From the IMG/VR virus record IMGVR_UViG_3300043388_000012, positions 18,210-82,209 of that record: a stretch of 64,000 nt of DNA. One strand, given 5' to 3'. Shown one piece after another: positions 2,794 to 62,988 of the stretch. A model generated the notes under the pieces. The model was not told where the DNA came from and made no database searches. It saw only the letters and a program-made list of their open reading frames with translations. Each line of letters begins with the position of its first letter. The stretch's first letter is position 1. Position numbers and translations under genes: made by a program. The DNA is from a virus (taxonomy: Duplodnaviria > Caudoviricetes).

Positions 2794-2811
2794 TGTATCC
2801 TCGAGGTTACA
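2794..2811. repeat. Motif B copy 1 (TGTATCCTCGAGGTTACA)
   Basis: 18-bp quasi-palindrome that recurs at 6 other sites. Confidence 0.9.
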
Positions 2812-2992
2812 CGGCCGATTTCCCTTGCAGCACACATGTGTCATACAGGTGGGCGCGTGGGGTTTGCGTCCGCACTCTGCCTCACGTCCGGGAGGCCTTA
2901 CCCCTATTCCCCCTCGAAAAATGATCGGGCAACCCAAAGGGCACCCTGGGTTTCAAAAATAAAATTTCGTATACCGCGCACAGCGGTAAGCA

Positions 2993-3484
2993 ATGGGCGG
3001 GGGCATGGCAAGGAAGAGCAAGGCAAGGCGAGAACGGGACTTACTCGGAGTAGTGCATGAGGCGGCGGGTGAGCTCGCGAAGAGACGAGAGCATGATTTG
3101 AGGCTTGCTCTTTTGCCCGACAAGATCGTGGTGCGTGCAGACACGTTCGTCCGCACGATTTGGTTTGTGCAGTTCTCCGAGGAAGCCAACATCCTTGCTT
3201 GGATGTACCGGAGCCCGGGGCAACCTTGGAACATCGCATGGCGCTTCAAGTACCCAGACAGAGCGGCAGAAGTGCATCGGGTTATGGTTAGTGCCGAACC
3301 GCAGGAATACGAGCTAGTCGCGGCCGAAGAGAAGCTCTCCGAGGTCTTCCAAGCTGCTTGCGATGCAGAGACACGAGCAGGGCGGTTTGCCGAGTATGAC
3401 CGGCTCGATATCCAGCTGATTGGGGAGGAAGCCCTTGCTTGCATCGAGGATCAACCGTGGGCCAAGAACCCGATCATTCTGTGA
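2993..3484 (+). CDS. Hypothetical protein
   Basis: First ORF of a long, tightly packed plus-strand operon. Confidence 0.7.
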   Translation: MGGGMARKSKARRERDLLGVVHEAAGELAKRREHDLRLALLPDKIVVRADTFVRTIWFVQFSEEANILAWMYRSPGQPWNIAWRFKYPDRAAEVHRVMVSAEPQEYELVAAEEKLSEVFQAACDAETRAGRFAEYDRLDIQLIGEEALACIEDQPWAKNPIIL

Positions 3485-3664
3485 TTGTCCCCAAAGCGAG
3501 CAGACCTGTTTTGGTCATGCTTTTCCGCTGAGAAAAGTCTTTGGTGCGGGACACGTCCGGCTGTAGAGTTCCGCCAACTCTCGTGCACAAGGTTCTTCCC
3601 GGGACTTGTCTCTCTCTTCATCGTGCACGGGAGTTTTCCTCCCTTCCCCTCGAGGGCCCAACTG

Positions 3665-3979
3665 ATGGACGGTCTACACAAGCTCGATGAACTCTGCACC
3701 GAAGTGCGGGAGGTGACTGAGTCTGACTGCGTTGTCTTGATGGTGATCGTGGGCAATCACATCGGCTACTCGGCGAAGTTTTCATGTGAGCCGCATCTCC
3801 GTACGCAGACGTTGAGCGCGATCGCTTCTCAGTTGCGTCACATCGCAGGTGAAATCGAAGCAGATGCTACCCCGCGACTAGCTTGGGATCAGAGCGATGG
3901 CGTTGTCTGCCCGACGTGCGGTGAGGACTTCACGTTGTGCTCGCACGGCAACGAAATAACTTCGAGGGAACAGTCATGA
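3665..3979 (+). CDS. Hypothetical protein with C-terminal CxxC Zn ribbon
   Basis: CPTCGEDFTLC; ATGA overlap with the next gene. Confidence 0.65.
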   Translation: MDGLHKLDELCTEVREVTESDCVVLMVIVGNHIGYSAKFSCEPHLRTQTLSAIASQLRHIAGEIEADATPRLAWDQSDGVVCPTCGEDFTLCSHGNEITSREQS

Positions 3980-4383
3980 ATGGCGATGTGACTTGGAAGG
4001 TTTGCGATCGATGCGTAGGCAAGCCGGATGCAGAGCATTTCGCTGAGACCCTCGAGGCATGCACTGACCCTGCGATCAAAGAGCTGGCGCAGAGCATTCC
4101 TGCGGTGACTTGTTATTTCGATACGGCAACCGCTGCAGCACGAAGCTTCCACGTCTGGATTACAGGCTATACACACCATGCTGATGGTTCTGTCACCATC
4201 CGCGCGCTCAACGACGGCAATGACGATCTCTTGCCCGGGATCGGTAGTGAGCGAGTTCCGCCGCAGAACTTAGTGCCGTGCGGCTGTGGCAAGTGGGTAT
4301 CTCCAACTCAAGCGCAATGCTTGGAGTCAGGCATAGAAATGCTCGACTTCGTTAGGAGCCGCAGGAGCCGGGGGAAGGCATGA
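3976..4383 (+). CDS. Cys-rich hypothetical protein (paralog of 22115..22654)
   Basis: Shares PGI..L.PCGCG.W..PT..Q with the 22.1 kb ORF. Confidence 0.7.
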   Translation: MNGDVTWKVCDRCVGKPDAEHFAETLEACTDPAIKELAQSIPAVTCYFDTATAAARSFHVWITGYTHHADGSVTIRALNDGNDDLLPGIGSERVPPQNLVPCGCGKWVSPTQAQCLESGIEMLDFVRSRRSRGKA

Positions 4384-4637
4384 CTAACAAGCCGCCGAAG
4401 ATTGAAACCACGCAACAGTACTTCGTTACGAAGGGTTGCTTGCAGGGATTCAAGAACAGTTTGTTAGCACTCGATGGTCTGAACCGACCAGACATGTGGA
4501 AGAAGCTTTATCGAGATGCGTTGCTCTCGATCATCGAAGAGCTCGCCGCCGACGTGAAGGAGTACGAAGACAGCGAGCCGCTGAACGTTCTCCCGTTCGG
4601 ACCAATCGAGATCCCTCCGCATAGGCGCAACCGATGA
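4380..4637 (+). CDS. Hypothetical protein
   Basis: ATGA overlaps on both sides. Confidence 0.65.
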   Translation: MTNKPPKIETTQQYFVTKGCLQGFKNSLLALDGLNRPDMWKKLYRDALLSIIEELAADVKEYEDSEPLNVLPFGPIEIPPHRRNR

Positions 4638-5059
4638 CTAAGGTCAAAGACCTTTGGAACGATGCAGAGGGCACGATCGTCTGGCGCGAAGTCTTCAAGG
4701 ACGAAGAAACGGGTCAGTGGCTCATTTCCGTGAACGTAGGCGGAAGCACGATCGAGCCTCCAGCGTTCAGCATTGCTCGTGCGCTCAAGTCCTATCTTGC
4801 CGAAGACATCCGGACGGAGGCGATCGTTGCCTATCAAGCGATGGCGCGTTGCCTGCACAGGCTAGCTAACAAAGCGATGCTCGAAGCAGAGAAGCTACAA
4901 CCGACTTCGGAGTTCGAGATCCCGATCGAGAAACTCTGCATCGATCTGATGAACGAAAAGGTTGCTGAGATCGCGAAGCACGGCGGCAGAGCTCTCACGA
5001 TCGCCGAAGAGCGACTAGCAGCTCATCTGCGCGCGCGGGGTTGGGGGGAGAAGCTATGA
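4634..5059 (+). CDS. Hypothetical protein
   Basis: ATGA overlaps on both sides. Confidence 0.7.
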   Translation: MTKVKDLWNDAEGTIVWREVFKDEETGQWLISVNVGGSTIEPPAFSIARALKSYLAEDIRTEAIVAYQAMARCLHRLANKAMLEAEKLQPTSEFEIPIEKLCIDLMNEKVAEIAKHGGRALTIAEERLAAHLRARGWGEKL

Positions 5060-5352
5060 CCGTCCGTCAGTACACGCCCGAGGAGAAGGCCCGCTTGGTC
5101 GGTGGGCTGTCGGAGGAAGATTGGAATCGATCTTCGATCGAGTTCGAGCGCGTCGTGAGGTGGTCTTTCGAGAGATTGCCGGTCATGACGCAAGCGGCTG
5201 CGCTGCACGGTCTCCTTTGCGGCAACCAGGAGCTTCAGGATGCGCTCGACACCATCGAGCACGTTTGTAAGCAGCAGCCGGTTCCGATGCAAGCTCCGTG
5301 CCACTCGCTGAGCAAGAAGCTCATCTCCGCAGGTTGGGAAGGATGCGAGTAA
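5056..5352 (+). CDS. Hypothetical protein
   Basis: GGGGGAG RBS and overlap with the upstream stop. Confidence 0.65.
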   Translation: MTVRQYTPEEKARLVGGLSEEDWNRSSIEFERVVRWSFERLPVMTQAAALHGLLCGNQELQDALDTIEHVCKQQPVPMQAPCHSLSKKLISAGWEGCE

Positions 5353-5431
5353 AGGTCGAGCTGGGTATAAACACGATCTGCATCGAGTACTTAGGCGGGC
5401 AACGTTTCATCGAGATTCAGAGGGCTGGCGG

Positions 5432-5722
5432 ATGACAAGCGACGACGACGATCCTGTGATGCGGCGTACTGCGACGGGCTTGCCCGGAGCCGCGTGTTTG
5501 AAGTGCGGAGCTCTGGCTCAGAACGCGGCCAACGCTCTGGGAGACAAGCTGATACATCCGTTCGCTGGCTGCTTCTCGATCTGTGTCATGTGCTTCCATC
5601 CGCAGGCGTTCACGGAGGACCTTACGAAGTTCCGTGAGCTGACTCCCGAAGAAGCCAAGTCGAAGCCACTTCAGCGAGCACTCGACGCGATCAAGCGAGC
5701 ATTCGCGACGAGGCCTAGCTAA
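5432..5722 (+). CDS. Zn-finger hypothetical protein
   Basis: CLKCG...ICVMC; resembles the C-terminus of 25288..26490. Confidence 0.65.
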   Translation: MTSDDDDPVMRRTATGLPGAACLKCGALAQNAANALGDKLIHPFAGCFSICVMCFHPQAFTEDLTKFRELTPEEAKSKPLQRALDAIKRAFATRPS

Positions 5723-5723
5723 A

Positions 5724-5942
5724 ATGCCGCTCGTTATCCCGTTCGTCTGCGATGTGTGCGGAGCGGGTTGCGTTGCCGAACCATGCTCGGGAGAGACGTG
5801 CTTTCTCCCGCATCGTGCGGATGGGCACGTGCACTACAGATGCCCGACCGGAGACGCTCCGCCGTTCGCTGTGACCGTCATCAAGAGCAGGTGGGGCGAT
5901 CACATTCAGATTACTTCGTCGAAGCGAATGGACCAACCATGA
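5724..5942 (+). CDS. Small Cys/His-rich protein
   Basis: CDVCG...C..H...HYRC; fits operon tiling. Confidence 0.55.
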   Translation: MPLVIPFVCDVCGAGCVAEPCSGETCFLPHRADGHVHYRCPTGDAPPFAVTVIKSRWGDHIQITSSKRMDQP

Positions 5943-6109
5943 ACCGGCTACACGCTCTCGTGCACGCGCTCGAATGCACGGCGATCGTCTTGGCTGTGAT
6001 TGCTCCGGTTCGTAGCACGATGCATAAAGTCGCAGCTTGGTTCGCGTTGGGCGTGCTCTGTTTGGTGATCGCGATGGGAGCCGGAGCGGAGCTGTGGAAT
6101 CTGAAATGA
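5939..6109 (+). CDS. Small membrane protein
   Basis: Two hydrophobic stretches; ATGA overlap. Confidence 0.5.
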   Translation: MNRLHALVHALECTAIVLAVIAPVRSTMHKVAAWFALGVLCLVIAMGAGAELWNLK

Positions 6110-6168
6110 GACGACGATCGCAGCTACACGAGCTGTTCATTGTGCTCGTTGGCAAGCGAGGCTAACCG

Positions 6169-6950: not shown

Positions 6951-6960
6951 AGGGGGACAC

Positions 6961-7601: not shown

Positions 7602-7673
7602 TTGCATCGTGGTTCGAGCGAGCTATCGCACGTGTGCGAGCGAGCTCTTCGAGCTGCTAGGCGGAGGTCGCAA

Positions 7674-10511: not shown

Positions 10512-10730
10512 ATGGAGTTGGTCGAGCGTGCTCGCGTGCGTGCGGATGGCGACAAGCCGACAGGGCATGTTGCATGGTCCGAGTATGCGACCGCGTATAA
10601 CATCCATGTTTGGAGACATGGCCACGTGCTTACAGCTCGCGAGTTCCTAGAGTCAGGCGGCTTCCGATACGGAGAGCTGCTCGACCTGCTCGGCTGTGAG
10701 CCAAAGACTTGGGAGCCTGTGTCGCTCTGA
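10512..10730 (+). CDS. Hypothetical protein
   Basis: TGATG overlap with TerL. Confidence 0.6.
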   Translation: MELVERARVRADGDKPTGHVAWSEYATAYNIHVWRHGHVLTAREFLESGGFRYGELLDLLGCEPKTWEPVSL

Positions 10731-13516
10731 TGCGTTACCGAGTGAAATGGGCGGCGACGATCGCGGCATCCACGCTCGCAGCGTCAACGACGCTAGCTAG
10801 TCCGGGTCATGATGTTCTAGCCAGTGAGGCGGCGAGCGAGAATGTAACCTCGAGGATACAAAAACCGCGGCTCCGAGTGCGTATCGTTCCGCCTCCTGTG
10901 CGGCCGCAGGAGCCGAGCAAGGAACCGAAGCCCCCGTTGCGCCTTGAGACGCCTCCCGGGTTTCCTGAGCCAGCTCCGGAGCCGGATGACGTCGAAGACG
11001 ACGGGGCAACCGATCAAGAGATTCAGATGGCTCTGCTGCACAAGGCGGCGGAGGCGAAGGCCAAGTATCACGAGCTCTGCCGCAACGACATAGACGCCTT
11101 CTGTGAGTACGTACTGAAAGACGTCGACGGCAAGGCGATCGAGCAGAACGCCTTTCACGAGCAGCTTCAGCGCGATCTGACAGTACACAGGCAGATCGTT
11201 GTCATCAGCCATCCTGAGAGCGGGAAGGCGCTGACGCTCGATACAGAGATTCCGACGCCAGACGGCTGGCGGACGATGGGATCGCTGAAGTGCGGCGATC
11301 GTGTGTTCGGAGGCGATGGCAAGCCGTGCTTAGTTACGTTTGCGACGCCTGTGCAGCTGGGTCGACGCGTGTTCGAAGTTGAGTTCGAAGATGGCTCGAT
11401 TCTCAAGGCGGATGCCGATCATCAATGGCATGTTCGCAAGCGGCAGGCGTTCGGCACTCGAGTTGTCACAACGCTCGACATGCAGCGCAAGCTCACGGAG
11501 TCAGACGGTCATTTTGTGTGGTCGGTACCGTGCACTGGAGCAGTGCAGTATGAGCGACACAGGTTGCTTGTTGACCCGTATGTGTTGGGAGCATGGCTCG
11601 GCGACGGCACTGCGAGCGATGCTTCGTTGACGTTCGGCGAGGCGGATAGCTTCGTTTGGGAAGAGTGCGTTGCACGAGTCGGCGGCAGAGCTCCGCGCGT
11701 GGATAGGCACAACGGGCATGTGAAGACCGGGACTCTCGGGTCAGGGTGGGGAGCGATCCGCGGTAGGTTGCGTCGCTTGCGAGTGCTGGATGACAAGCAT
11801 ATCCCGACCAACTATCTGACGGCTTCTGTGTACGATCGACGGGAGCTGCTAGCCGGCCTGCTCGATACTGACGGGAGCGTGAGTCGAGCAGCCGGAGGAA
11901 GCTCACGAGTCGAGCTCACGCTCTGCAACGGCAGGCTCGCGAGTGACTCACTCGAGTTGATTCGGTCGCTGGGTTTCCGCGCAACGATGAAGGAGTCCGA
12001 CTCCTGTTTGAACGGGCGCGTAGTCGGTCGGCGTTGGCGGATCTGTTTCACAGCGCGTGAGCCGGTGTTCCGGTTGCCACGGAAGCTCGCGAAGCAGCAG
12101 CTAGGCGGCTCGACTCGTACGAGTTGGAAGCATGTCGTTGCGATTCGCGAGATCGAGTCGGTCCCGGTTCGCTGCATTGCGGTCGATAGTGAGAACCGAA
12201 CGTATCTCGCTGGCCGGGCGTACACGGTCACGCACAACACCTCTCAGATAGCCGTTGGGCGCGTGTTGTTTGAGCTAGGGCGCAACCCGAACTTGCGCGT
12301 GATGCTGCTCTACAACGCGGAAGAAGCCGCGGTCAACACGCTCTCGACGATCAAGAAGTACATCGAAGACAGCGAAGAGCTGCATGCGGTCTTCCCCAAT
12401 CTCAGACGCGGGCAGATTTGGAAAGATGACGCGATCGTTGTTCAGCGCTCTGCCTACGATCGTAACCCGTCGATCGTTGCAGTCGGTTACAACAGCCGAC
12501 GCATCGGCGGTTCGCGCGTCGACTTCCTAGTCATCGATGACTTGCTCGACCAGACAGTCACGGCGAGCGAGATACAGCGCCGCAAGCTGTCGAGCTGGGT
12601 AAAGAGCACGGTCCTAACGCGTATCACTGCGCACGCAATGATCGCGTTTCTCACGAACGCTTGGCATCCGCGCGACCTCGCACACGAGTCGGTCAAGGAT
12701 CGCGGCTGGCATCTCATCAAGCGGCCGATCCGTAATCCGGATGGCGCGATCTCCTGGCATCTGTGGACTGAAGAGCGGCTCAAGCTCAAGCGCAAGGATC
12801 TCGGAGCTCTCGAGTACGCACGTTCGTTCGAGTGCGATCCGCGCGATGACTCTTCGCGTGTGTTCCGGCCTGAACACGTCGAGTATGCGCAGAAGAAGCG
12901 CGGAGCCGGTTACGGCTTCTTGCACTCGCTCGATATCATGCCCGATCGCTCGCTCGTTGTGACCGGCATCGACTTGGCGGCTGGCGACGACACGAAGAAG
13001 ATCGGTGCTCGCACTGCGATCGTCAGCGTGTTCTTCCATCCCAATCAGGATCGGCAGGTCGTGCGCATCCGCTCCGGTCGTTGGCGCGCGCGGCAGATTT
13101 TGGATGAAGTTGCGGCGGTCGGTCATCTCTTCCCGCGCAACCATTGGATCGTGGTCGAGAACAACGGTGTTCAGCGCTGGATTCTCGACCTGGCTAACGA
13201 GCATGACATGGACGTCGGCGTTGCTCTCGTGCCGTTCCGTACAGGCCGCAACAAGAGTGATCCTCGCTTCGGCGTGGCATCGATGGCGGCCGAGTACGAG
13301 GCTCGCCGTTGGATTTTGCCGGATGCCTGCGAGACCGAAGACGAGCAGAACGAAGTCGAGAGCGTCGTATCGCAGATGATCGATTATGTGCCGGAAGCGC
13401 ATACGGGCGATGCGCTAATGGCGAAGTGGTTCGCGCGCGAAGTCGGCAGGAAGATCTTCATGCGGTTCTTCGGACCCGGAGCTACTGGCGGTTCCATCGT
13501 GCGCGCGATCGGGTAG
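10730..13516 (+). CDS. terL: Terminase large subunit containing an intein
   Basis: Walker A PESGK/TSQ split by the intein; Walker B FLVIDD; nuclease GIDLA, VENNG, HTGDALMA. Start uncertain (10730 or 11027). Confidence 0.93.
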   Translation: MRYRVKWAATIAASTLAASTTLASPGHDVLASEAASENVTSRIQKPRLRVRIVPPPVRPQEPSKEPKPPLRLETPPGFPEPAPEPDDVEDDGATDQEIQMALLHKAAEAKAKYHELCRNDIDAFCEYVLKDVDGKAIEQNAFHEQLQRDLTVHRQIVVISHPESGKALTLDTEIPTPDGWRTMGSLKCGDRVFGGDGKPCLVTFATPVQLGRRVFEVEFEDGSILKADADHQWHVRKRQAFGTRVVTTLDMQRKLTESDGHFVWSVPCTGAVQYERHRLLVDPYVLGAWLGDGTASDASLTFGEADSFVWEECVARVGGRAPRVDRHNGHVKTGTLGSGWGAIRGRLRRLRVLDDKHIPTNYLTASVYDRRELLAGLLDTDGSVSRAAGGSSRVELTLCNGRLASDSLELIRSLGFRATMKESDSCLNGRVVGRRWRICFTAREPVFRLPRKLAKQQLGGSTRTSWKHVVAIREIESVPVRCIAVDSENRTYLAGRAYTVTHNTSQIAVGRVLFELGRNPNLRVMLLYNAEEAAVNTLSTIKKYIEDSEELHAVFPNLRRGQIWKDDAIVVQRSAYDRNPSIVAVGYNSRRIGGSRVDFLVIDDLLDQTVTASEIQRRKLSSWVKSTVLTRITAHAMIAFLTNAWHPRDLAHESVKDRGWHLIKRPIRNPDGAISWHLWTEERLKLKRKDLGALEYARSFECDPRDDSSRVFRPEHVEYAQKKRGAGYGFLHSLDIMPDRSLVVTGIDLAAGDDTKKIGARTAIVSVFFHPNQDRQVVRIRSGRWRARQILDEVAAVGHLFPRNHWIVVENNGVQRWILDLANEHDMDVGVALVPFRTGRNKSDPRFGVASMAAEYEARRWILPDACETEDEQNEVESVVSQMIDYVPEAHTGDALMAKWFAREVGRKIFMRFFGPGATGGSIVRAIG
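10843..10860. repeat. Motif B copy 2 (TGTAACCTCGAGGATACA)
   Basis: Exact reverse complement of copy 1. Confidence 0.9.
11228..12238 (+). mobile_element. Class 3 intein with LAGLIDADG homing endonuclease (337 aa)
   Basis: Starts with Ala (ALTLDTEIPTP), block B ADHQW, block F VRCIAV, ends VTHN with +1 Thr; LGAWLGDG and LAGLLDTDG motifs. Confidence 0.93.
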
Positions 13517-14140: not shown

Positions 14141-14890
14141 CGGGCAACGCATCGATGCAGCGGCTCAAGCTCGACTTGACCATGTGTCCGCGGTTGATCC
14201 CGTATTTTGGTGCGAAGGCGTTCACGCTCATGTATCCGTCTCCGCAGCATGATGCGTTGATAGAGCCGTTCGCAGGCGGAGCCTCGTATGCGCTCCGTTA
14301 CCCTGACCGGAAGGTGATTCTTGTCGAGAAGTCCATCGCTGTGGCGCTACTTGATCGATGTCTCTGCGTTCGAGATCCGAAGCCTGCCGCTCGTCAGCGA
14401 TGTGGATGATCTCGGCAACGTTCCGCAGGAGGCTAAATGGCTCGTTGGATGGTGGCTTGACCCGACCACGTATAAGCCAGCCAAACGAGCTAGCGTTAGG
14501 TGGCATCATGCGCAGGCACTCCGGGAGGGCAATCATCCTCGATGGTATTGGGGAGCCGAGCGACGGGGCTTGATTGCTCGGTTAGTCGAGCGCATCAAGC
14601 ATTGGAAGATCGTCGAAGGCGGCTACGAGAGCTCGCCCAACATCGAAGCAACGTGGTTCGTTGATCCGCCGTATCAGGTCAAAGGCTCGACTTACGTGCA
14701 TGGCTCCAAAGACATCGACTACGAGCAGCTTGGCGGATGGTGTCGGGAGCGAGCTGGTCAAGTCGTTGTCTGCGAGAACATCGGCGCGGATTGGCTTCCG
14801 TTCAGGCGGCTCGGCAAGGAGACCGTACGCAAGGCAGTGAAGGGCAAGCTTCAACGCAACAGCGAAGTCTTCTGGACGAACTCGCTGTGA
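14137..14890 (+). pseudogene. DNA adenine methyltransferase split across two frames near 14330-14345
   Basis: PYFGAK and EPFAGG (SAM motif) in 14137..14409; DPPY catalytic motif in 14321..14890. Confidence 0.8.
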
Positions 14891-19712: not shown

Positions 19713-20047
19713 TGACCAAGGAAGCGCAGCAAACCGACCCGCTCGACATGACGTTGCGCGAGCTTCTGGCGGCACTCGTTGATCGAGCAGGAGCCAGCGC
19801 GAACGATGAAGAATGGATCAACATCCGCGGAGAGGTTTACCCATGGCGGCGCATCATCGCAGCTGCGGAGCGCGGCGAGTGCGAGGTGAGCCGCGTCGGT
19901 CGGCGGTTGATGATGCGGCGTTCGGAGCTGAGCAAGTTCTTGGCTGCAAGGCGCATCGGTCCGAAGAAGGTTGAACCTAAGACCGATGCGCCTACGAGCG
20001 AGCTAGACAGGTCAGTGCAGCGAGCGCTTCGCCGTAACGGGCTCTAG
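19712..20047 (+). CDS. Excisionase-like winged-helix protein
   Basis: SRVGRRLMMRRSELSKFL wing motif; abuts the integrase 3' end. Confidence 0.6.
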   Translation: MTKEAQQTDPLDMTLRELLAALVDRAGASANDEEWINIRGEVYPWRRIIAAAERGECEVSRVGRRLMMRRSELSKFLAARRIGPKKVEPKTDAPTSELDRSVQRALRRNGL

Positions 20048-21351
20048 TGTTTCGAGAGCCGTGAGACGTTCATGGCGGCGAGCTCTGGGATCGCGAGAGA
20101 GATATCGGGGAACGGACCCGGGTTGAGCTGGAGGTCTTCGAGGCTCCGCGCCGCTCGGACGTAGCGATCCATGATCTCCTTCGTGATGTGACCGGTTCGA
20201 TCTGTGATCCATCCATCGCTTTTGCCAGCTCGCTTAGCCCAAGTGACGAAGGTCGCTCGCAGGTCGTGAAAGCGCAACGCTTGGATCTTGTCTGTGTTGC
20301 TGAAGAGTATCCCTCGAGTGACACCAGCGCAGAGCAGATCCTTGCGAAGGGTCTCGGCTTCGAAGCGGCGTCTGCAGTGCAGTGTGGAGATGACCGGCTT
20401 CGAGTCAGAGGGCCAGCCGCAGTATTCTCGCCATCTACGTAAGAGCTCGATGAGCGAACCGATTCCCGGTGACTCCGCGTCGCGTTGCACGAACATCACG
20501 GGATGATCGTTCTTGTTCACGAGACTCAGGATCGTTGAGTGGGTCAGGTCGATCGAGCTCCAGAGAAAGAACTCGATGCGGCTCTCTTCGTCGGCGGTAG
20601 CACGCGATCGGTTGCCGATTGGGATCGAGCCTTTGCGCAGACCCGTGTACGTAGCTAGCGCGTAGTACACGCGGCGTTCGATCGGGATGGCGATGCACAT
20701 CAAGAGAGCAAGGAGCTCGACCGGGTAAAGGTAGCTGTAGAGCTTTGACGGGCCTTTGCTCGGGAGCAGGTCATCGCTGACAGGGTTGTCTTCGCGAAGC
20801 CGACCGGGGCGGATGGCAAGGTCGAAGAGCCGATGCGTGACCATGTACACTTGCCGCTTCGTGCCTTGCTTCGGGTTCTTCTTGTATCGACGCTTGTAGG
20901 CGACCCATGCAGCTGCGAAGGCTCGCTCGACGTCCTGCTCAGTGACCGCGGAGACCGCCATGTCTCCGAGGTATGGGTACACGTGTTGTTCGAGGCGACG
21001 CACGTCATCTTCGGCAGACTTCTTGATCTTGAGTCGTTTCACTTCGCCGTATTTTTGATGCAGCTTGCCCGACGTCCATTCCTCTCCGAATGCTCTGACC
21101 TTCTTTTCAGCTCGGAGCCGTTCGGGCATCTCTGCTGCGGGGTTTCGAAATGCAGTCGAGAACTTTTTCGCCGCAGCTTGAGCGGCATCCTTGTCTGCTT
21201 CCTTGTTCGTGTAGAGAGGTCGACCATCGTCGGCAAGCATCTCTTCGCGGATGCGGCTTCCGCGAACGCTGATCTTCGCAACGTAGCGGCCGCCCTTCGT
21301 AGGCAACCACTCGGCAGAGCCTGTCGCTGGCTTGGTTTCGCTTGGTTTCAT
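20044..21351 (-). CDS. int: Tyrosine recombinase (phage integrase)
   Basis: TYTGLRKG (R), FHDLRATF (HxxR), GHITKEIMDRY (H, Y); next to attP. Confidence 0.95.
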   Translation of the reverse strand: MKPSETKPATGSAEWLPTKGGRYVAKISVRGSRIREEMLADDGRPLYTNKEADKDAAQAAAKKFSTAFRNPAAEMPERLRAEKKVRAFGEEWTSGKLHQKYGEVKRLKIKKSAEDDVRRLEQHVYPYLGDMAVSAVTEQDVERAFAAAWVAYKRRYKKNPKQGTKRQVYMVTHRLFDLAIRPGRLREDNPVSDDLLPSKGPSKLYSYLYPVELLALLMCIAIPIERRVYYALATYTGLRKGSIPIGNRSRATADEESRIEFFLWSSIDLTHSTILSLVNKNDHPVMFVQRDAESPGIGSLIELLRRWREYCGWPSDSKPVISTLHCRRRFEAETLRKDLLCAGVTRGILFSNTDKIQALRFHDLRATFVTWAKRAGKSDGWITDRTGHITKEIMDRYVRAARSLEDLQLNPGPFPDISLAIPELAAMNVSRLSKH

Positions 21352-27107: not shown

Positions 27108-27125
27108 TGTATCCTCAAGGTTACA
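27108..27125. repeat. Motif B copy 3 (TGTATCCTCAAGGTTACA)
   Basis: One mismatch; flanked by TTT/AAA that extend the palindrome. Confidence 0.9.
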
Positions 27126-27187: not shown

Positions 27188-27515
27188 GAACGGCGAACGT
27201 TACGAGCTGTGTCTCTTTGCGGCCAAAGGGTCGACCAATGGCGGCGAATGGCTACGGCTCGATCACGGGGTCACGATGACCAAATCCTGATTTAGCCGGC
27301 TGAAGATCGGTGTGGCATACAACTTGAGGTGATCTTGCCGATCTTAGTTGGTTTCCACGCTCACAAATGTCATACGGAACATCCTCTCGAAACCTTCGCA
27401 TTCGAGGGACACAAAAACCGGTTGTTTGAACGCCAACGTTCAAGTTGGGGTGGGGCCCGAGTATGTGCAGACTGATGGAGACCCTCCGGCATCGCGTGCA
27501 AGGCTGGTGTCAGCC

Positions 27516-28355
27516 ATGAAGCGCTCGAAAGTTCCTCCGGGTATGTACGGCTCTGAGTCGGAGCTATGCCAGACGTTGATCGATGCCGCGCGAGCAGGCG
27601 GCTATCAAGCGCATCCAGAGTGCGGCGCATGGGACGCCATGATCGTTGATCGAGGAACCGGAGCGCAGATCGGTGTGCACTCGAAGCTCAGGCCAAACGT
27701 CGACGTTCTCTCTCAGGCTTTGGCAGACGAAAGGCTACCTGGCCCTGAGATTCACGCTGTACTTGTACCTGCCGCGTCATCGGCTTTCCTCGAGGTCGCA
27801 AAGGGGCTTCGGATCTACGTGCTGCAAGGCGTGTTCCTCGATTGGCTCGACCTCCCGGAGGTCTTCCGTTACGCGGTTCGTTGGATGCATCCGAACAGGC
27901 ATTGGGTCCCTGAAGTCGAGATGCGCTTCCCCGCTGGCGTACCTGCTCCGCGCAAAATGACTCCGTGGAAGGTCGCAGCCGTGAAACTCTGCTTGATGGC
28001 TCGCGAGAAGGGCTTCGTGACGCGCGATGACATGCGCAAGTTGGAGCTCGATCCCAGATGGTGGCTAGCTCCGAAGTACGGAGCCGTTCTCACGAAGCGC
28101 GTCGTCAATGGAGAGAAGCAACGCGGCGAGTACGTACTTCGTGACCCGTCATCGCGGCTCGTGCCGGACTTCAAGTTTCCCGAGATCACAGGAGCGCTCC
28201 AAGCTCGTGACTTGAAGGGCCCGCGCTTGCGTGTGAAGCAACCGCCGCAGAAGACGCGATCGACGTTGCTACCTCCATCGTCAGAAGCAGCCGAAGACGT
28301 GGCAACCGGGCTCCAGCTCAAGCCTGGCAATGAAAGGCTGGTCGCGTGTGACTAA
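27516..28355 (+). CDS. PD-(D/E)xK-like nuclease-fold protein
   Basis: ESEL...WDAMIV...QIGVHSKL; the expected E of ExK is H. Confidence 0.5.
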   Translation: MKRSKVPPGMYGSESELCQTLIDAARAGGYQAHPECGAWDAMIVDRGTGAQIGVHSKLRPNVDVLSQALADERLPGPEIHAVLVPAASSAFLEVAKGLRIYVLQGVFLDWLDLPEVFRYAVRWMHPNRHWVPEVEMRFPAGVPAPRKMTPWKVAAVKLCLMAREKGFVTRDDMRKLELDPRWWLAPKYGAVLTKRVVNGEKQRGEYVLRDPSSRLVPDFKFPEITGALQARDLKGPRLRVKQPPQKTRSTLLPPSSEAAEDVATGLQLKPGNERLVACD

Positions 28356-28529
28356 CAGAGAGGCAGCAAAGCTGTTAGCCGAGCGGCAAAAGATGTTTGC
28401 GGATCAGACGAAGATGATCTCGCACGTCGCAGATAAGGCGTTCACTGACCGAGTTCTCAAGGCCTATAGTCTAGCGATCGACGCATTGCTCAGGTCAGAA
28501 ACGACGTAGCTCGCAAATAAGTCTGGTGT

Positions 28530-28880
28530 ATGAACCGGACGGACGATCGAAGGTGGGGCAGAAGCAAGTTGCTGCGGCATGGGCATCTGCTCCGCGCGTT
28601 ACGTGAAGATGCCGGACTGTCTCAAGCGCGGCTCTGTCAGCGGATCGGAATGAGTCCAGCACAGCTCTCGGAAGTCGAGCGCGGGATACAACCGCTCTCC
28701 CTCCGACGTGCAAACCAGATCGCCAAGGTGCTCGGCAGTTCGTTCGCAGAAGTTGTGCAAGCTGTGCTTCAGGATCGCGTCGAAGATGCCGGGTTCAGCG
28801 AGCTGCAGGTGTCTGTCGTTCCGATCGCGGTTACGGCGACTGTCAACGGACATTCGCACGAAGCTGACAAGCTCCCATAG
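28530..28880 (+). CDS. XRE-family HTH regulator (candidate phage repressor)
   Basis: LRALREDAGLSQARLCQRIGMSPAQLSEVERG. Confidence 0.88.
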   Translation: MNRTDDRRWGRSKLLRHGHLLRALREDAGLSQARLCQRIGMSPAQLSEVERGIQPLSLRRANQIAKVLGSSFAEVVQAVLQDRVEDAGFSELQVSVVPIAVTATVNGHSHEADKLP

Positions 28881-30897: not shown

Positions 30898-31602
30898 CTA
30901 AGCGCACAAAACGCTAGGCGGGCGTTTGCGTCGGCGCGTCGACTCGCAGAACTCGCACATCGTTTGGCGGCCAGTGCGGCGAACGAACGGATCGCCGCAG
31001 CGCTTGCAGTCCGGAGTCGCGATCGTGAGCTTCCCAATCCAACTAACGTCGCCTCCGTTGTTGTCTCTGAGCTTCGAGAGCGCGCTGTTCTCGATCTGTC
31101 TGACGCGCTCACGAGTGATCGACATGTACTCGCCGATCTCCTCGAGGGTCATCCCGCATGGATGCTTGCGCACAGCATCTTTCGCAGCTGTATGGTTATC
31201 CCACTCGAGATCCGCCCATGGGTCTGGTATGTGCGCAGGGGCTCGACCTCTCCGCTTCGGCGCAATCGGCGGCGGAGGCGGTTGGCGTACTCGGAGCCGC
31301 GGTAACGTCGGCTGCGGCGAGATGAAGGCAGGCATGATCTGCCGCACTCGGAGCCGAGGAACCGCGGGAGGCGTTGGAGGTATCTGGCGAACTCTCAGGC
31401 GAGGCGATGCGACTGAAAAGGGAATCATCGCGACCGGAGGCGGTTGACGATTCTGGAGGCCTGAGAGAGCTGCTATCGGGGTTGTTGATCGAATTCTGTA
31501 CCGCACCAGGGAGTTTTGCATCTGCCCTGCATGTAGGTGGCTAGTCACCACAAAACACTGAAGGTCGAATTCGGTTTTTGACGAACTCTTGACGTTGAGC
31601 AA
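30898..31602 (-). CDS. Sigma70 region-4 domain protein with C-terminal Zn finger
   Basis: MTLEEIGEYMSITRERVRQIENSALSKLR; CKRC...CEFC. True start uncertain and probably shorter. Confidence 0.8.
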   Translation of the reverse strand: MLNVKSSSKTEFDLQCFVVTSHLHAGQMQNSLVRYRIRSTTPIAALSGLQNRQPPPVAMIPFSVASPRLRVRQIPPTPPAVPRLRVRQIMPAFISPQPTLPRLRVRQPPPPPIAPKRRGRAPAHIPDPWADLEWDNHTAAKDAVRKHPCGMTLEEIGEYMSITRERVRQIENSALSKLRDNNGGDVSWIGKLTIATPDCKRCGDPFVRRTGRQTMCEFCESTRRRKRPPSVLCA

Positions 31603-31607: not shown

Positions 31608-31636
31608 TTGACGTGAAGTCCCGGATGCGGGACACT
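31608..31636 (+). promoter_or_regulatory. Promoter with motif-A operator
   Basis: TTGACG-17 nt-GACACT; AGTCCCGGATGCGGGACA. Confidence 0.75.
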
Positions 31637-31643: not shown

Positions 31644-31949
31644 TTGAAAGGGATGGTCACTGTGAAGAAAATGCTGAAGTTGCGCGCGATTCAAACGCTG
31701 CACGGTAACGAGGCGGCGACTCAGGAGATTCTGCGAGCTCTCAAGCTCTCACAAGGCAACATGCGCGATGCGTGTGCGGCGTTGGGTATCGGGAAATCTT
31801 CGATGTATCGCTTGATCGAAGACCTGAACGCACAAGCTGCGATCGACAAGCTCGTTGCCTCCCTCGGCGTGAAGATTCAGGGCAAGGAGTTGTCTGCCGC
31901 CGCAGCTCCGGTCAAGGGCCCGAAGCCGCGCGTGAAGAAGGTCGCATGA
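31644..31949 (+). CDS. Fis-type (HTH_8) DNA-binding protein
   Basis: ILRALKLSQGNMRDACAALGIGKSSMYRLI. Confidence 0.8.
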   Translation: MKGMVTVKKMLKLRAIQTLHGNEAATQEILRALKLSQGNMRDACAALGIGKSSMYRLIEDLNAQAAIDKLVASLGVKIQGKELSAAAAPVKGPKPRVKKVA

Positions 31950-35480: not shown

Positions 35481-35936
35481 ATGGACAACGGCAACGACAA
35501 ACCAACGATTCAGAGCTTCGGCGTGCTGGCTGGCGCGTACCTGAACCACGCGAAAGACACTGCGTTTCTCACGCATGCGTGCGAGGTCGACTCGAACGGC
35601 TATCCGGTCAAGGTCCTCTGCAACCGAGTGAAGGCAGAGCACATCTGTCCGGATGGCTACTCGGACGAAGAGTTAGCGGGCCCTGCTACCTGCCCTGCCT
35701 GTGCGAAGAAGGACCCTCGGCATCTCACACGAGAGCGCAAGGAGGCGTTGATCTGGCGACATACGTCGAAGGATTACCGCGGAGTCGTTGGCGGCGCGAA
35801 GACGATCCTTGTGCTCCGGTTGGGCGGAACTACGCTCGTACCGCTCTCCGGTCTCACGGATGCGGAGCTAGCGAGCGAGCTCAAGAGCGCGCAGCACGCC
35901 GAAGCCAAGCGGCTGGCGAAGAAGACGGCGAAGTGA
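35481..35936 (+). CDS. Cassette R1a: two-domain Zn-binding protein (leaderless)
   Basis: HAC...C...CPAC; ATG 6 nt after TAGGTT. Confidence 0.75.
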   Translation: MDNGNDKPTIQSFGVLAGAYLNHAKDTAFLTHACEVDSNGYPVKVLCNRVKAEHICPDGYSDEELAGPATCPACAKKDPRHLTRERKEALIWRHTSKDYRGVVGGAKTILVLRLGGTTLVPLSGLTDAELASELKSAQHAEAKRLAKKTAK

Positions 35937-36163
35937 TGGATGCGATCACATGGACGCTACAGGCAGGTACTCCGCACTACGCGTCTAGCTGCGGCCGCTA
36001 CGTTGCTCTGTATGTGCGCACGAGCCGGACAGGCTTCGCGATCTACCGAGTGTTCCGGGCAAGCCTGCCGTATGCACAGCGGAAAGAACGCAACGCGCTC
36101 TCGGTCGGCGGCTTGCCAGCTCTCGCCTATTGGGAGCGCAAGGAGCTCCCAGAAGGAATGTAA
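35936..36163 (+). CDS. Cassette R1b: hypothetical protein
   Basis: TGATG coupling to R1a. Confidence 0.6.
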   Translation: MDAITWTLQAGTPHYASSCGRYVALYVRTSRTGFAIYRVFRASLPYAQRKERNALSVGGLPALAYWERKELPEGM

Positions 36164-36176
36164 CCTCGAGGATACA
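36159..36176. repeat. Motif B copy 4
   Basis: TGTAACCTCGAGGATACA overlapping the R1b stop codon. Confidence 0.9.
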
Positions 36177-39412: not shown

Positions 39413-40120
39413 GTGGAGACAGCAACCCGATCGAAGCCGAAGCCGCGCACGAGACTGAAGCAGAGCTCGCCAAAATCGAGACCGCCGATCGAGCTGAAGT
39501 CGAGACCGCCGAAGCAGGCGAAGTCGAGACCGCCAAAAGCCGATCGGAGTGTATCCTCGAGGTTACACGTGCAGATGGTTCCGCTGAGTCAGCTCCTAGA
39601 GTGGCCAGGAAACCCTAAAGAGCACGACTTGGAGACTCTGGGGGAGAGTTTCGAGAGGTTCGGCTACGTCGAGCCTATCGTGTATGACGAAGGCAGTAAG
39701 CGGATCGTTGCTGGCCACGGTAGGCGCGAAAAGTTGCTGGCATGGAAGCAGAGCGGGAAAGCTCCCCCTGCTCGTGTCGTTGTGCGTAATGGCGAGTGGT
39801 ATGTGCCTGTGCTGCGCGGAGTCTCGTTTCCAAACGCACACGAAGCCGAAGCGTACCTACTCACCAGCAACCAAGGTGTGATCCGAGGGGGGTACAACGC
39901 AACCGCGCTCGCAGAGATGCTCTCCAGACATGTGGATGATTCGAACGGTATCGGTTGGAGCTCCGACGAGATCAGCGACCTGATAGGCAAAGCGCAGAAG
40001 GCCGCTCAAACGTCTTACAACGAGTCGATCGCTCCGGATGAACCGGAAGCATACGAGCAACCGAAGCCCGTTACGCATACCTGTCAGAACTGCGGAGCGA
40101 CGGTTGCCTGCAATCAATAG
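39413..40120 (+). CDS. ParB/Srx N-terminal-domain protein with C-terminal Zn ribbon
   Basis: WPGNPKEH...FGYVEPIVYD...IVAGHGR; HTCQNCG. Start may be 39569/39575. Confidence 0.8.
   Translation: METATRSKPKPRTRLKQSSPKSRPPIELKSRPPKQAKSRPPKADRSVSSRLHVQMVPLSQLLEWPGNPKEHDLETLGESFERFGYVEPIVYDEGSKRIVAGHGRREKLLAWKQSGKAPPARVVVRNGEWYVPVLRGVSFPNAHEAEAYLLTSNQGVIRGGYNATALAEMLSRHVDDSNGIGWSSDEISDLIGKAQKAAQTSYNESIAPDEPEAYEQPKPVTHTCQNCGATVACNQ
39476..39534 (+). repeat. TCGAGACCGCC x3 at 24-bp period
   Basis: Copies start at 39476, 39500 and 39524. Confidence 0.85.
39550..39567. repeat. Motif B copy 5
   Basis: TGTATCCTCGAGGTTACA immediately before GTG 39569. Confidence 0.9.
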
Positions 40121-44827: not shown

Positions 44828-45118
44828 ATGGCAGGCGAACTACTCGAGTTGATCACGAGTCACGATCCGTCGCTCAAGCAGCGCGTGTTGACACGCGTGC
44901 AGCACGTTATCGCTGACTCGTTTAGAGCAGACAAGTCACGCCGCACAACCTCCGAGGTAGTGCGGCGGTTCAAGATCCTCGAGACCTTGATGCGAGAGCT
45001 CCGGCATGACTACGGATGGGCGTTCGAACGGATTCTCGACGCTATGCCTGTAGCGCTCCGATGCAAGCTCGACGGCATCCCGTGGGCGCCCGATTTGAAG
45101 CGCAACTCTTGGGTGTAA
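44828..45118 (+). CDS. Hypothetical protein
   Basis: 96-aa ORF; its stop lies inside motif B copy 6. Confidence 0.6.
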   Translation: MAGELLELITSHDPSLKQRVLTRVQHVIADSFRADKSRRTTSEVVRRFKILETLMRELRHDYGWAFERILDAMPVALRCKLDGIPWAPDLKRNSWV

Positions 45119-45131
45119 CCTCGAGGATACA
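45114..45131. repeat. Motif B copy 6
   Basis: TGTAACCTCGAGGATACA upstream of the head-assembly genes. Confidence 0.9.
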
Positions 45132-60393: not shown

Positions 60394-60406
60394 TTAGGAG
60401 AGCTCA

Positions 60407-60877
60407 ATGGGTATCCTCGGACAACCACGTCACTACCATTCCAAGTTCCGATTCCTCATCGAGATCGATCAAGTCGGGAGCGCGGCGTTTCAGTCCTGCT
60501 CGGAGCTCAAGGTCGAAGTCGCGAAGACGGAATACTACGAAGGCGGCACAATGATCCCGATCAAGGAGCCAGCTCGTATGAGCGTGGCTGACTTGACGAT
60601 CGAACGCGCTGCGACGAAAGACGCTGACCTCTACAATTGGTTTCAGCTGACTGCGAACGCAGCTCTCAACGGAGGCCTGCGGAGCCCACAGTTCAAGCGC
60701 ACAGCTTCGATCGTGCAGTTCGATCGAGACAACCGAGCGCTTCGCCGTTGGCTCCTGTCAGGTCTCTGGCCGATGTCTTTCACAGCCGGCGCATGGGACA
60801 ACAACAGCGACGACTTCACGATCGAACAGGTCGTGCTCTGCTACGACTACTTTCAGCTCCGCCGTAACGTCGGCTGA
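60407..60877 (+). CDS. Tail tube protein (T4 gp19-like)
   Basis: FLIEID...FQSCSEL...YYEGG...LYNW...SIVQFD...RWLL..LWP. Confidence 0.9.
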   Translation: MGILGQPRHYHSKFRFLIEIDQVGSAAFQSCSELKVEVAKTEYYEGGTMIPIKEPARMSVADLTIERAATKDADLYNWFQLTANAALNGGLRSPQFKRTASIVQFDRDNRALRRWLLSGLWPMSFTAGAWDNNSDDFTIEQVVLCYDYFQLRRNVG

Positions 60878-60904
60878 ACTCAGGCAGCTAGCGCGCGGCA
60901 TCGG

Positions 60905-60940
60905 GAGGGCCAGTGGAGCAAGCCACTGGCCCTCATTTTT
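60905..60940 (+). terminator. Rho-independent terminator
   Basis: GAGGGCCAGTGG-6 nt-CCACTGGCCCTC followed by ATTTTT. Confidence 0.85.
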
Positions 60941-61124
60941 GTGGAAGGTGCTCGGACTCGTAGCGAGCGCAGAGCAGGTGTAGCGCTACGAGTTGATCTC
61001 GCTCTTCGGTGCCTACCGCAGGTCGCGACTCGATCAAGCGGCGAAGCTCGGTCACAGCTGATTCGTAGTGATAGCGAGTATCGAGTGACGATAGTTGCCA
61101 CAGCTCCGGCTCTGATTGGGTCAT
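60933..61124 (-). CDS. HigA N-terminal-domain-like small protein without HTH
   Basis: T..HYESAVTELRRL...GTEERDQL..L..L..RYESEH.P. Confidence 0.6.
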   Translation of the reverse strand: MTQSEPELWQLSSLDTRYHYESAVTELRRLIESRPAVGTEERDQLVALHLLCARYESEHLPQK

Positions 61125-61241
61125 ATGCAGATGCTCTCGCAAACGTCGTCGTCTCGCTGTTGTTCGTCTGGCTAATCGCATGGGCAAAATCCTCACCAGC
61201 TCTGTACGTACGCACGAGCCGGTGAGGATGAAGGGGAAGTC

Positions 61242-61442
61242 TCATCCGTCTAGCTTCAGGTCGAGACCTTTGGTCGTGACTCGCCATTCTGTGCCGATAC
61301 CGCGACTGCCCGGATTGCGTTCGAGCAAGCCAAGCTTCTCGAGGGCGACGAGAGACTGAAGCGGCATGCACGTGAAGGGCTTGTCGTAGCCTCGCAGGCG
61401 AGCATGCCTGAGCCAATCGTGCTGCGCGGTCGTGAGTTTCAC
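61242..61442 (-). CDS. Small winged-helix-like protein
   Basis: LT.AQ..WL...SLVALEKLGLLE...WRVT.KG. Confidence 0.55.
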   Translation of the reverse strand: MKLTTAQHDWLRHARLRGYDKPFTCMPLQSLVALEKLGLLERNPGSRGIGTEWRVTTKGLDLKLDG

Positions 61443-61801
61443 TTGCCGTTCTCCCTGCAGTAGTTCGCGCCGATGACCATGAACTCAGCGATGTCTCTTC
61501 CTGACCATTCTGCGATGTCCAAGCGCAATGCCGAGATATCGAGAGGGTTGTCTGCTAGTGCGCTACGAGCCAGCCGGATCTCTGCTATCAAGTACTTCTT
61601 CGGTTGACCTGCCTCCGGTTCGTCGAACGCTCCAGGATCTGCGGCGCAAGCAGTTTTCCACTTGATCGTGAATACGCCAGCATCGCCCATGGCGCTGACC
61701 GCGTTGGGATCGAAGCTGATCTCATGCACGCGCGCTTCTAGCGGGACTTGTATCGGCGTGCCAATGAGAGCTGTCTCTAGCAGTTGTTGAAAAGGGTCCA
61801 T
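61439..61801 (-). CDS. Hypothetical moron protein
   Basis: 120-aa ORF; ATGA overlap with the next reverse gene. Confidence 0.6.
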   Translation of the reverse strand: MDPFQQLLETALIGTPIQVPLEARVHEISFDPNAVSAMGDAGVFTIKWKTACAADPGAFDEPEAGQPKKYLIAEIRLARSALADNPLDISALRLDIAEWSGRDIAEFMVIGANYCRENGK

Positions 61802-61912
61802 GCAGACCTAATGCCATCGAGTCCGAGCACGGGACAAGCGAAGTTGCGCACGATGCAGCTTTCGTCGGAGCCTTTGCTTTGCGTCTAGCTGGACGCGTAA
61901 GGACGGTAAGCC

Positions 61913-62704
61913 ATGTCACGAGAGATGGAGTTCCCATGCCCGAGCGGGCTACGTGTGAAGTTGCGCGGCGTGAAGGGCAAAGACTTGGACGGGATGCGCG
62001 ACCGTAAGCGCGTAGCAAGCGGCGAAGCCGTGAGCAAGCTGCTCGATGACTGCACGCTCGAAGTGTTCGAGCGCTCGATCTATACGCGGCTACCGAACTT
62101 CGCATGGGCCGACGTTTTGGTCGGAGATCGTACGAGCGCGATCATCAACCTTCGCCAGATTACGGCGGGGAGCACGTATGACTTCCGTGTTCGTTGTGCC
62201 GATCGTGACTGCCGACAGATGATCGATTGGACGATCGAGCTCTCCGACCTGCCGATCAAGGAGCTCCCAAAGGAGAGTGCCGAACGCTTCCTAGCCGGCA
62301 ACGTGTTCGATGCGACGCTGAACGGCACGTCGATCAAGTTCGCACTCCCGACAGGCCGGTCTCAGACGAAGCTCGTGAAGTACGCAGCGCAGCTCGATGC
62401 TAACGCGCGGCAGAAGGCCGATCGCACTGGCGAGCGTGAAGGCGGCGCTGCTTCGGTCGAAGGTCGAACGCTGCTCGGGCTCGCAGGTAAAATCGTCTCT
62501 GTGGAGGGAGTGCCGAACGTGCTCGCTTGGCTAGGCGAGCAAGATCTCGATGACATCTCCCAACTGCGGAGAGCGATGGATGTGGTCGACTGCGGAGTCG
62601 AGACCGGGATCGAGATCGAGTGCTCCGGATTGGAGGGCTGCGGGTTACGTCAGGAGATAGAGCTCCCTTTGGACAGCAAATTCTTCTTGAGGACCCCACT
62701 CTAG
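61913..62704 (+). CDS. Tail assembly chaperone (G-like)
   Basis: Lies between tube and tape measure; LPSG-like start; slippery site near the 3' end. Confidence 0.75.
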   Translation: MSREMEFPCPSGLRVKLRGVKGKDLDGMRDRKRVASGEAVSKLLDDCTLEVFERSIYTRLPNFAWADVLVGDRTSAIINLRQITAGSTYDFRVRCADRDCRQMIDWTIELSDLPIKELPKESAERFLAGNVFDATLNGTSIKFALPTGRSQTKLVKYAAQLDANARQKADRTGEREGGAASVEGRTLLGLAGKIVSVEGVPNVLAWLGEQDLDDISQLRRAMDVVDCGVETGIEIECSGLEGCGLRQEIELPLDSKFFLRTPL

Positions 62705-62940
62705 AAGACTTTCAAAACCCGTTCGAAGCCTATCTGTTCACGAACGAAGACGGGGATGACGGATGGCCAGATCTCCGGTTCGAGCTGGCTTGGCTGGAGC
62801 ACGGCGGAAGCGGGCTAAACATGTCTTGGCTCGATGCTCCGGAGATTGATCACGCTGACATTGTGCCCACGATCGTACGGATTCGAGAGCAACGCAGACG
62901 CGAAGCGCAGGCTCTGAATAGAGCCAGAGGCAAGCGGTAG
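62665..62940 (+). CDS. -1 frameshift extension (GT-like) of the chaperone
   Basis: In-frame heptamer C-CCT-TTG at 62665-62671; the -1 frame is open to 62940. Confidence 0.7.
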   Translation, partial: PFGQQILLEDPTLEDFQNPFEAYLFTNEDGDDGWPDLRFELAWLEHGGSGLNMSWLDAPEIDHADIVPTIVRIREQRRREAQALNRARGKR

Positions 62941-62970
62941 ACGTACCCTCAAACCGAGGCGGCTCAAGAA

Positions 62971-62988
62971 TGTATCCTCAAGGTTACA
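62971..62988. repeat. Motif B copy 7
   Basis: TGTATCCTCAAGGTTACA just before the GGAGG RBS of the tape measure gene. Confidence 0.9.

Follow-up and report, generated by a model that had tools for sequence, protein, structure and literature searches.

An 18-bp dyad respelled in place at gene junctions of uncultured large phages, most likely the docking site of a phage DNA-binding protein

The stoperators and operators of Cluster A mycobacteriophages, which belong to immunity repressors of the L5 gp71 type, are 13–14 bp long, asymmetric, oriented with transcription, and read by a monomer (PMC9283540, PMC6550527). Here, we analyze an 18-bp dyad of the form TGT-N12-ACA that is dispersed over an uncultured phage, G000, available as an IMG/VR contig of 82,209 bp (record IMGVR_UViG_3300043388_000012) rated ~75% complete. 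The window, meaning the whole stretch of 64,000 nucleotides (nt) under analysis, corresponds to contig bases 18210–82209. Like the Cluster A stoperators, the dyad is found in many near-identical copies over a temperate phage genome, mostly in short intergenic gaps, and has a phage-specific consensus that diverges between relatives, which in Cluster A evolves with its reader (PMC9283540, PMC6550527). Unlike them, the sites are 18-bp dyads that are orientation-free, with a 5:5 split relative to gene direction in G000, and their reader and function are putative.

In the single-repressor regulons of phage P1 C1 and of the phiC31 repressor, a large temperate phage genome is dotted with more than ten operators. 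The phiC31 repressor binds 17-bp inverted repeats, some of which stand where transcription units end, whereas the P1 C1 operators are asymmetric. The scattered layout is alike in G000, without sequence similarity, and the repressors of P1 and phiC31 are known. The operators of PpsR/CrtJ in purple bacteria also have the form TGT-N12-ACA and are read by a Fis-type helix-turn-helix (HTH); G000 encodes a small Fis-type HTH protein, but this protein tracks a second palindrome, GTCCCGnATnCGGGAC, instead. The same formal pattern is the late promoter consensus of P2 Ogr/P4 Delta, which likewise stands before morphogenesis operons (PMC3931495). The sites of G000 differ in that no Ogr/Delta zinc-finger protein accompanies them, the promoter geometry does not appear to be fixed, and all 18 bp are conserved rather than just the ends.

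Most likely, a single phage DNA-binding protein with a genome-wide action docks at the 18-bp motif, because relatives of G000 keep their own spelling of it at several common gene junctions. On balance, we regard the 18-mers as probable operators on double-stranded DNA for one phage-encoded protein of two-fold symmetry that would block or insulate transcription at the boundaries of gene blocks. A first-pass annotation of the window had proposed a cis-acting site read by a phage protein, and this general proposal agrees with the positional conservation and the lineage-specific co-variation in seven relatives; the three specific functions suggested alongside it do not fit.

Copies of the 18-mer and their spelling in related phages

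The pattern TGTAWCCTCRAGGWTACA lies at window positions 2794, 10843, 27108, 36159, 39550, 45114, and 62971, and the window has no further match when up to two mismatches are allowed. The scan reproduced the seven copies of the annotation, five of which are TGTATCCTCGAGGTTACA when strand is allowed for, while the two at 27108 and 62971 have a central CTCAAG. None of 100 dinucleotide shuffles of the window yielded a match to the pattern, so that zero copies are expected by chance against seven seen. The whole contig holds ten copies, the three additional ones being at contig positions 3275 (with AGT for TGT), 12591, and 16401. Extra CCTCGAGG cores in G000 were rejected as sites, as they fall within genes and have no TGT/ACA arms. 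When the 100-nt flanks of the copies are aligned, sequence conservation ends at the boundary of the 18-mer, and the motif unit is therefore a discrete 18-mer, with the dyad form TGT-N12-ACA that had been described.

All ten copies consist of one TGTAA half and one TGTAT half, with the other 17 of the 18 bases fixed. If ten T's were dealt randomly over twenty half-sites, the chance of exactly one per site would be ~0.006 by our calculation. The half that has T at position 5 defines the orientation of a copy. The alternation of orientation reported earlier is strict within the window (F R F R F R F) but is broken in the whole contig (R R R F R F R F R F), where seven of nine steps are switches (P ~0.09, by our count) and the alternation is not significant.

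The scan of the remaining contig and of related phages that the annotation had recommended thus returned three further copies and seven relatives with spellings of their own. One relative, G001, was found by an exact scan of viral contigs, and the others through searches with the portal, the capsid, and the small sigma-like protein. G001 is complete at 109.5 kb and carries 12 perfect copies of TGTAACCTCGAGGTTACA plus two with one mismatch; its copies are usually lengthened to AAGT...ACTT, by which the palindrome reaches 24–26 bp. Between G000 and G001, the word changes at a single position of one half-site and is otherwise shared. The half-sites and copy numbers in the eight genomes are as follows.

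G000: half-site TGTA[A/T]CCTC, 10 copies
G001: half-site TGTAACCTC, 14 copies
G002: half-site TGTGGCCCC, 13 copies
G004: half-site TGTGGCCCC, 10 copies
G003: half-site TGTC[T/C]CCTC, 17 copies
G008: half-site TGTCGCCCC, 12 copies, in a genome 98% complete
G009: half-site TG[G/T]AAACCC, 16–20 copies
G010: half-site AGTCTCCCC, 6 copies

Together, these genomes hold 102 sites, with 6–20 in each of the seven uncultured relatives, and the family consensus is TGTnnCCyCGrGGnnACA. Among the 204 pooled half-sites, T1 is conserved at 92%, G2 at 100%, T3 at 87%, C6 at 78%, C7 at 99.5%, and C9 at 97%, and positions 4, 5, and 8 are lineage-specific. No dispersed dyad of this type occurs in four other relatives (G005, G006, G007, and G011). 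Two further repeats were considered as forms of the motif and rejected: the CTCGAG-rich 12-mers of G002 derive from a 15-bp tandem repeat at the contig ends, and the TGCA repeats of G011 are arrays of 15-bp period rather than dispersed dyads. The G011 genome (40% G+C) has long arrays of TGCA-N11-TGCA with this period, for example at 4069–5980, 92427–93080, and 104182–104420 (L238–L243). The motif-less G005 (L144–L149) has another repeat instead, GTCTCAGCTTCAAGGGCGCTGAGCAGCC, ~28 bp in length and with an inverted repeat inside it, in 12–24 copies over the whole contig. Megablast of G000 against cultured phages gave no match, and the best cultured capsid protein is 40% identical to that of G000; therefore, G000 has no annotated relative.

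No represented species has the motif as a host-wide repeat. The exact word was sought in one genome per species of prokaryotes (185,579 species, 596 Gb), and the annotation's own refutation test came back negative, with only 40 scattered stretches in unrelated taxa, each with one site, which by our estimate is no more than chance. This result bears on the alternative that the sites belong to a host transcription factor or nucleoid protein borrowed by the phages, the spellings differing as the hosts differ. The G+C content of the phages ranges from 56% to 68%, and hence their hosts probably differ; in addition, no phage reader could be pinned down. Such borrowing is nevertheless very unlikely given that no genome in the scan has more than chance copies of the exact word, that near-perfect identity of 10–20 copies is typical of phage-encoded regulators, and that G000 and G001 share nearly the same word.

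The sites are conserved between phages and co-vary in place. G000 and G001 are syntenic at 65–76% nucleotide identity, and two of their alignment blocks start exactly at a site. Across the eight genomes, a site lies at the junction of a 96-residue gene with the head block in six, at the junction of PolB with the next gene in six, between the TerS-like gene and TerL in five, and upstream of the ParB-like gene in four. With a stricter gene caller that was run without a ribosome-site bonus, 72 of the 102 sites (~70%) are outside called genes, against ~15% expected (P per genome 4e-11 to 0.06). The 71 sites that were typed by junction comprise 55 in co-directional gaps, nine in divergent gaps, and seven in convergent gaps; 11 of them occupy gaps of 40 nt or less, barely longer than the site itself. 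Several sites end merely 1–13 nt before the following start codon, and many others are 70–380 nt away. In G002 and G004, where the usual half is TGTGG, two sites that supply the stop codon of the upstream gene kept TGTAG or TGTAAT. It follows that the spelling moved by point changes at fixed positions, restrained where a stop codon had to be preserved, and not by new insertions. Mobile palindromic repeats, similar to repetitive extragenic palindromes or miniature inverted-repeat transposable elements, were rejected as a source of the sites because the junctions are orthologous across phages and the stop-codon variants were kept in place, although transposases were not searched for.

The seven sites of the window are placed as follows.

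Site 1: 2794–2811, TGTATCCTCGAGGTTACA, 19 nt past the stop codon of the serine recombinase, with 181 nt separating it from the called gene that follows
Site 2: 10843–10860, reverse orientation, between the TerS-like gene and TerL
Site 3: 27108–27125, CTCAAG variant, heading the block with the nuclease-like/winged-helix protein and the XRE-type HTH protein
Site 4: 36159–36176, reverse orientation, the TAA of its TGTAA being the stop codon of a 75-residue open reading frame (ORF) at 35936–36163
Site 5: 39550–39567, with 7 nt between its end and the ATG of the ParB-like gene, the first of the ParB-like/portal/MuF block
Site 6: 45114–45131, reverse orientation, its TAA being the stop of a 96-residue gene at 44828–45118
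Site 7: 62971–62988, CTCAAG variant, ending 13 nt before the tape measure ATG, with GGAGG in between

The placement of copies upstream of TerL, the ParB-like/portal block, the head block, and the tape measure gene, as first described, holds. Site 1 has a counterpart in G001 that likewise follows the recombinase gene. Site 2 is within the longest TerL ORF, yet upstream of the portion that aligns to G001 TerL (G000 residue 87 corresponds to G001 residue 20). A cassette-type promoter/operator is located ~60 nt downstream of site 3, whose orthologue in G001 is at an equal distance from the gene, and a cassette promoter is also present downstream of site 4. The 7-nt gap between site 5 and the ATG of the ParB-like gene recurs in G001 and G002, although the G002 spelling differs. 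The head-morphogenesis block begins 69 nt downstream of site 6, and orthologues of site 7 precede the tape measure gene in G001 and G002.

Three direct copies of GTCGAGACCGCC occupy window positions 39440–39545, just upstream of site 5, and similar CTCGAGACCGCC runs are numerous in G002. TerL (10730–13516, plus strand) has a LAGLIDADG homing-endonuclease/intein-like insert at residues 358–432, and the 524-residue TerL of G001 is without it. A small serine recombinase (2031–2774) is encoded besides a tyrosine integrase, which is evidence for a temperate phage:

Tyrosine integrase: 20044–21351, minus strand

Pfam Phage_integrase matches are also present in G001, G002, and G008, and these integrases indicate a temperate lifestyle. 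G000 is probably temperate, with a genome of probably ~110 kb.

The double-stranded word and its hairpin

The double-stranded word is what selection keeps. All ten G000 stems carry an A·A or U·U mismatch that results from the A/T difference at position 5, and the mean hairpin energy is −6.5 kcal/mol in G000, compared with −12 in G001, −12.5 in G002, and −16.5 in G003. The pairing of TGTAA with TGTAT cuts the hairpin energy to roughly half, yet 17 of 18 bases do not vary; the target of selection is therefore the DNA word rather than the hairpin. The half-site variants of G002 and G003 are uncompensated on the transcribed (sense) strand.

These data also weigh on an RNA-level element, in which the hairpin of the transcribed palindrome terminates, stabilizes, or processes mRNA, or hides the GAGG/GGGG Shine–Dalgarno-like core and so controls translation of the next gene. 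The stable hairpins of G001, G002, and G003 (−12 to −16.5 kcal/mol), the lengthening of the G001 palindrome, the several sites 1–4 nt before a start codon, which put GAGG at Shine–Dalgarno distance, and the sites that fill convergent gaps, such as the one at 14399 of G002 in a gap of 25 nt, would all suit such an element. We nonetheless find it unlikely: the weak, mismatched G000 stems coexist with a fixed word, both orientations occur relative to transcription although their RNAs differ, the G002 and G003 variants are not compensatory, and for many sites the next start codon is 70–380 nt away. None of the sites is followed by a T run, so the combination of a stable G+C-rich hairpin and a U tract that makes an intrinsic terminator does not occur. 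Promoter and terminator scans covered two stretches of the window holding five of the seven sites; within them, no sigma-70 consensus promoter was detected, terminator-like hairpins were at chance level, and the motif sites were not called as terminators.

The uniform asymmetry of the G000 sites invites an explanation of its own. One A-to-T transversion per site breaks self-complementarity, and changing both halves would restore a perfect palindrome. We infer that this is the pattern to be expected from selection against a hairpin or cruciform, provided that the reader accepts A or T at position 5. Restriction avoidance was rejected as the cause of the asymmetric halves, since G000 shows no depletion of bipartite words that cover positions 5 and 14 (AAC-N6-GTT, 21 vs 10 expected; ACC-N4-GGT, 11 vs 9.5 expected). 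A heterodimer of paralogous readers was likewise rejected, as G000 has no paralogues of any candidate family.

Candidate readers and competing functions

Three proteins are candidates for the reader, given here in order of preference, followed by the ParB-like gene.

Candidate 1: 27516–28352, plus strand, nuclease-like/winged-helix protein (279–301 residues) with a restriction-endonuclease-like N-terminal fold and a C-terminal winged helix
Candidate 2: 28530–28877, plus strand, XRE-type (HTH_3) protein of 116 residues, adjoining candidate 1 and fast-evolving
Candidate 3: 30898–31335, minus strand, sigma-like protein combining a sigma-A region-4.2-like HTH with a CxxC-13-CxxC zinc ribbon, start codon uncertain
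ParB-like gene: 39575–40120, plus strand, with PHROG matches only, directly downstream of site 5

All eight motif genomes encode the nuclease-like/winged-helix protein and none of the four motif-less relatives does, a distribution unique among the candidates examined in detail. Its structural model, with a mean predicted local distance difference test score (pLDDT) of 79, has a weak likeness to NucS and restriction-endonuclease folds (best E = 4e-3), followed by a MarR-like winged helix. Residues E14, D40, and K57 are invariant, and the catalytic motif has Q at position 55, or H in G000, instead of D/E. The winged-helix segment P-R/H-W-W-L is common to the three CCTC lineages and missing in the CCCC lineages; co-variation of the putative recognition helix with motif position 8 is only suggestive. 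In a strict co-variation screen, each candidate had 0–2 discriminating columns, no better than controls; in a relaxed screen, this protein had 8.7% discriminating columns versus 4.9% overall, with P ~0.015 before correction for 18 families and with phylogeny as a confounder.

A related alternative makes the palindromes sites of cleavage, nicking, or recombination, either cut or nicked by the nuclease-like/winged-helix protein or used by the serine recombinase as crossover or accessory sites. The phyletic match of eight of eight against zero of four and the retention of E14, D40, and K57 would accord with this, and restriction-type enzymes read palindromes as dimers. The half-sites of resolvases and invertases also end in TGT...ACA, and a site adjoins the recombinase gene in G000, G001, G002, and G004. 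We judge it quite improbable, as 10–20 double-strand cuts or crossovers per genome would fragment or scramble the genome, the fold match is weak, the residue at position 55 is not D/E, and the serine recombinase is absent from four of the motif genomes (G003, G008, G009, and G010). The same absence, together with 10–20 sites per genome, too many for a pac site, tells against the packaging or recombination signal that the annotation had suggested.

The recognition helix of the XRE-type protein differs between motif spellings. The sigma-like protein, found in nine related phages, is present in all motif genomes and also in the motif-less G011. Its HTH (TRERVRQIE) is almost the same as region 4.2 of primary sigma factors, and the protein might imitate sigma region 4 or take its place. 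A full sigma-70-family factor of ~464–493 residues with regions 2 and 4 is encoded in G003 (L142:7029–8510, minus strand); a motif site is ~20 nt upstream of one candidate start of this gene, and an adjoining HicB-type HTH_3 gene has a motif site on either side. No LexA/cI-type peptidase domain was found in five genomes. The recognition helix of the Fis-type HTH protein (31653–31949) is unchanged between G000, G001, and G002, three phages whose 18-mers differ. The palindrome GTCCCGnATnCGGGAC, which this protein tracks, sits in the spacers of TTGC-type small-gene promoters and in the protein's own promoter, being present at window positions 31617–31634 and at ~20 further places between 33000 and 38900; it occurs 1–3 times in G001, G002, and G004 and is absent from G003, in agreement with the conservation of the Fis-type recognition helix.

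The second function that the annotation had raised is a parS-like site, here loaded with the ParB-like protein encoded downstream of site 5. Canonical parS is a 16-bp palindrome of the form TGT-N10-ACA, and in G000, G001, and G002, 7 nt separate a site from an ATG of the ParB-like gene, at which G004 has a site as well. However, BLAST detects no ParB-like gene in G008, with its 12 sites, or in G009, with 16–20 sites, and the 181-residue protein has neither a Pfam ParB_N match nor an evident HTH region. In G002 (27233–28444, minus strand; L031:7233–8444), the ParB-like domain forms one protein with a DPPY-type DNA methyltransferase and so stands in another context; in G001, a separate 394-residue gene follows the ParB-like gene. 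Of all the functions weighed, parS-type loading seems to us the least probable.

The remaining proposal, a late-gene activator or operator site, can be widened to an activator site for a temporal class of promoters, comparable to the TGT-N12-ACA sites of P2 Ogr/P4 Delta at about −55. In form, the motif agrees with the consensus of P2 late promoters (PMC3931495), the TerL, portal, head, and tail blocks have sites ahead of them, and three sites are 80–88 nt upstream of predicted cassette-promoter starts by our counting. This function is about as unlikely as an RNA element. First, no Ogr/Delta zinc finger (Pfam PF04606, Ogr_Delta) is over the cut-off in G000, G001, or G002, where the best match reaches 14 bits and has a stop codon within it. 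Second, the distance to the next start codon varies from 1 to ~380 nt, several sites ending 1–13 nt before it, and several gaps contain the site alone. Third, sites also occur in convergent gaps and behind the final gene of some blocks, and replication and early genes are flanked as well.

The proposed operator and its meaning

In the model that we favor, the putative reader would bind with two-fold symmetry, each subunit contacting a TGTnnCCyC half-site, and the half-site centers would be about one helical turn apart, as in classical 17–18 bp operators. The sites at gene-block junctions throughout the genome would have been respelled in place along with the reader as lineages diverged. At each block boundary, the bound protein would block or insulate transcription in the manner of a stoperator, and the lineage-specific spellings may act as immunity specificities. 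A blocking or insulating role is suggested because the phages carry integrases, many short co-directional or convergent gaps have no room for a promoter, and canonical terminators do not exceed chance in the scanned regions.

Several points weigh against this model. The roadblock or insulator role, although the most likely one, is argued only from geometry and analogy. A symmetric dimer alone does not account for all ten G000 sites differing at position 5. As for the reader, no candidate has significant co-variation once phylogeny and multiple testing are considered, and each candidate has a difficulty of its own: the nuclease-like family is widespread outside this clade, the XRE-type protein is in six of the eight motif genomes and was not found in G003 or G009, and the TRERVRQIE helix of the sigma-like protein is invariant, save for a single I-to-V change in G008, while the motif varies. 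The gene starts from which the distances were taken come from our own simple gene caller plus family searches.

A more elaborate version of the operator model is possible, if doubtful. In this version, a dimeric reader, possibly a restriction-endonuclease-fold protein turned DNA binder, would clamp 10–20 junctions as bidirectional insulators, with a specificity that diversifies as an immunity code. In G000, selection would also have broken self-complementarity by one A-to-T change per site, separating DNA binding from an unwanted hairpin or cruciform.

The natural spellings of one site in eight genomes, at orthologous positions, provide a ready series for studying the joint change of specificity of a regulator and its 10–20 sites, and the G000 sites, all asymmetric at position 5, are a clean natural experiment that separates selection on a DNA word from selection on a hairpin. 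If the operator model is true, genome-wide silencing or insulation by dispersed operator-like sites would not be peculiar to mycobacteriophages: large temperate phages of an uncultured clade unrelated to them would have it too, in a symmetric form.

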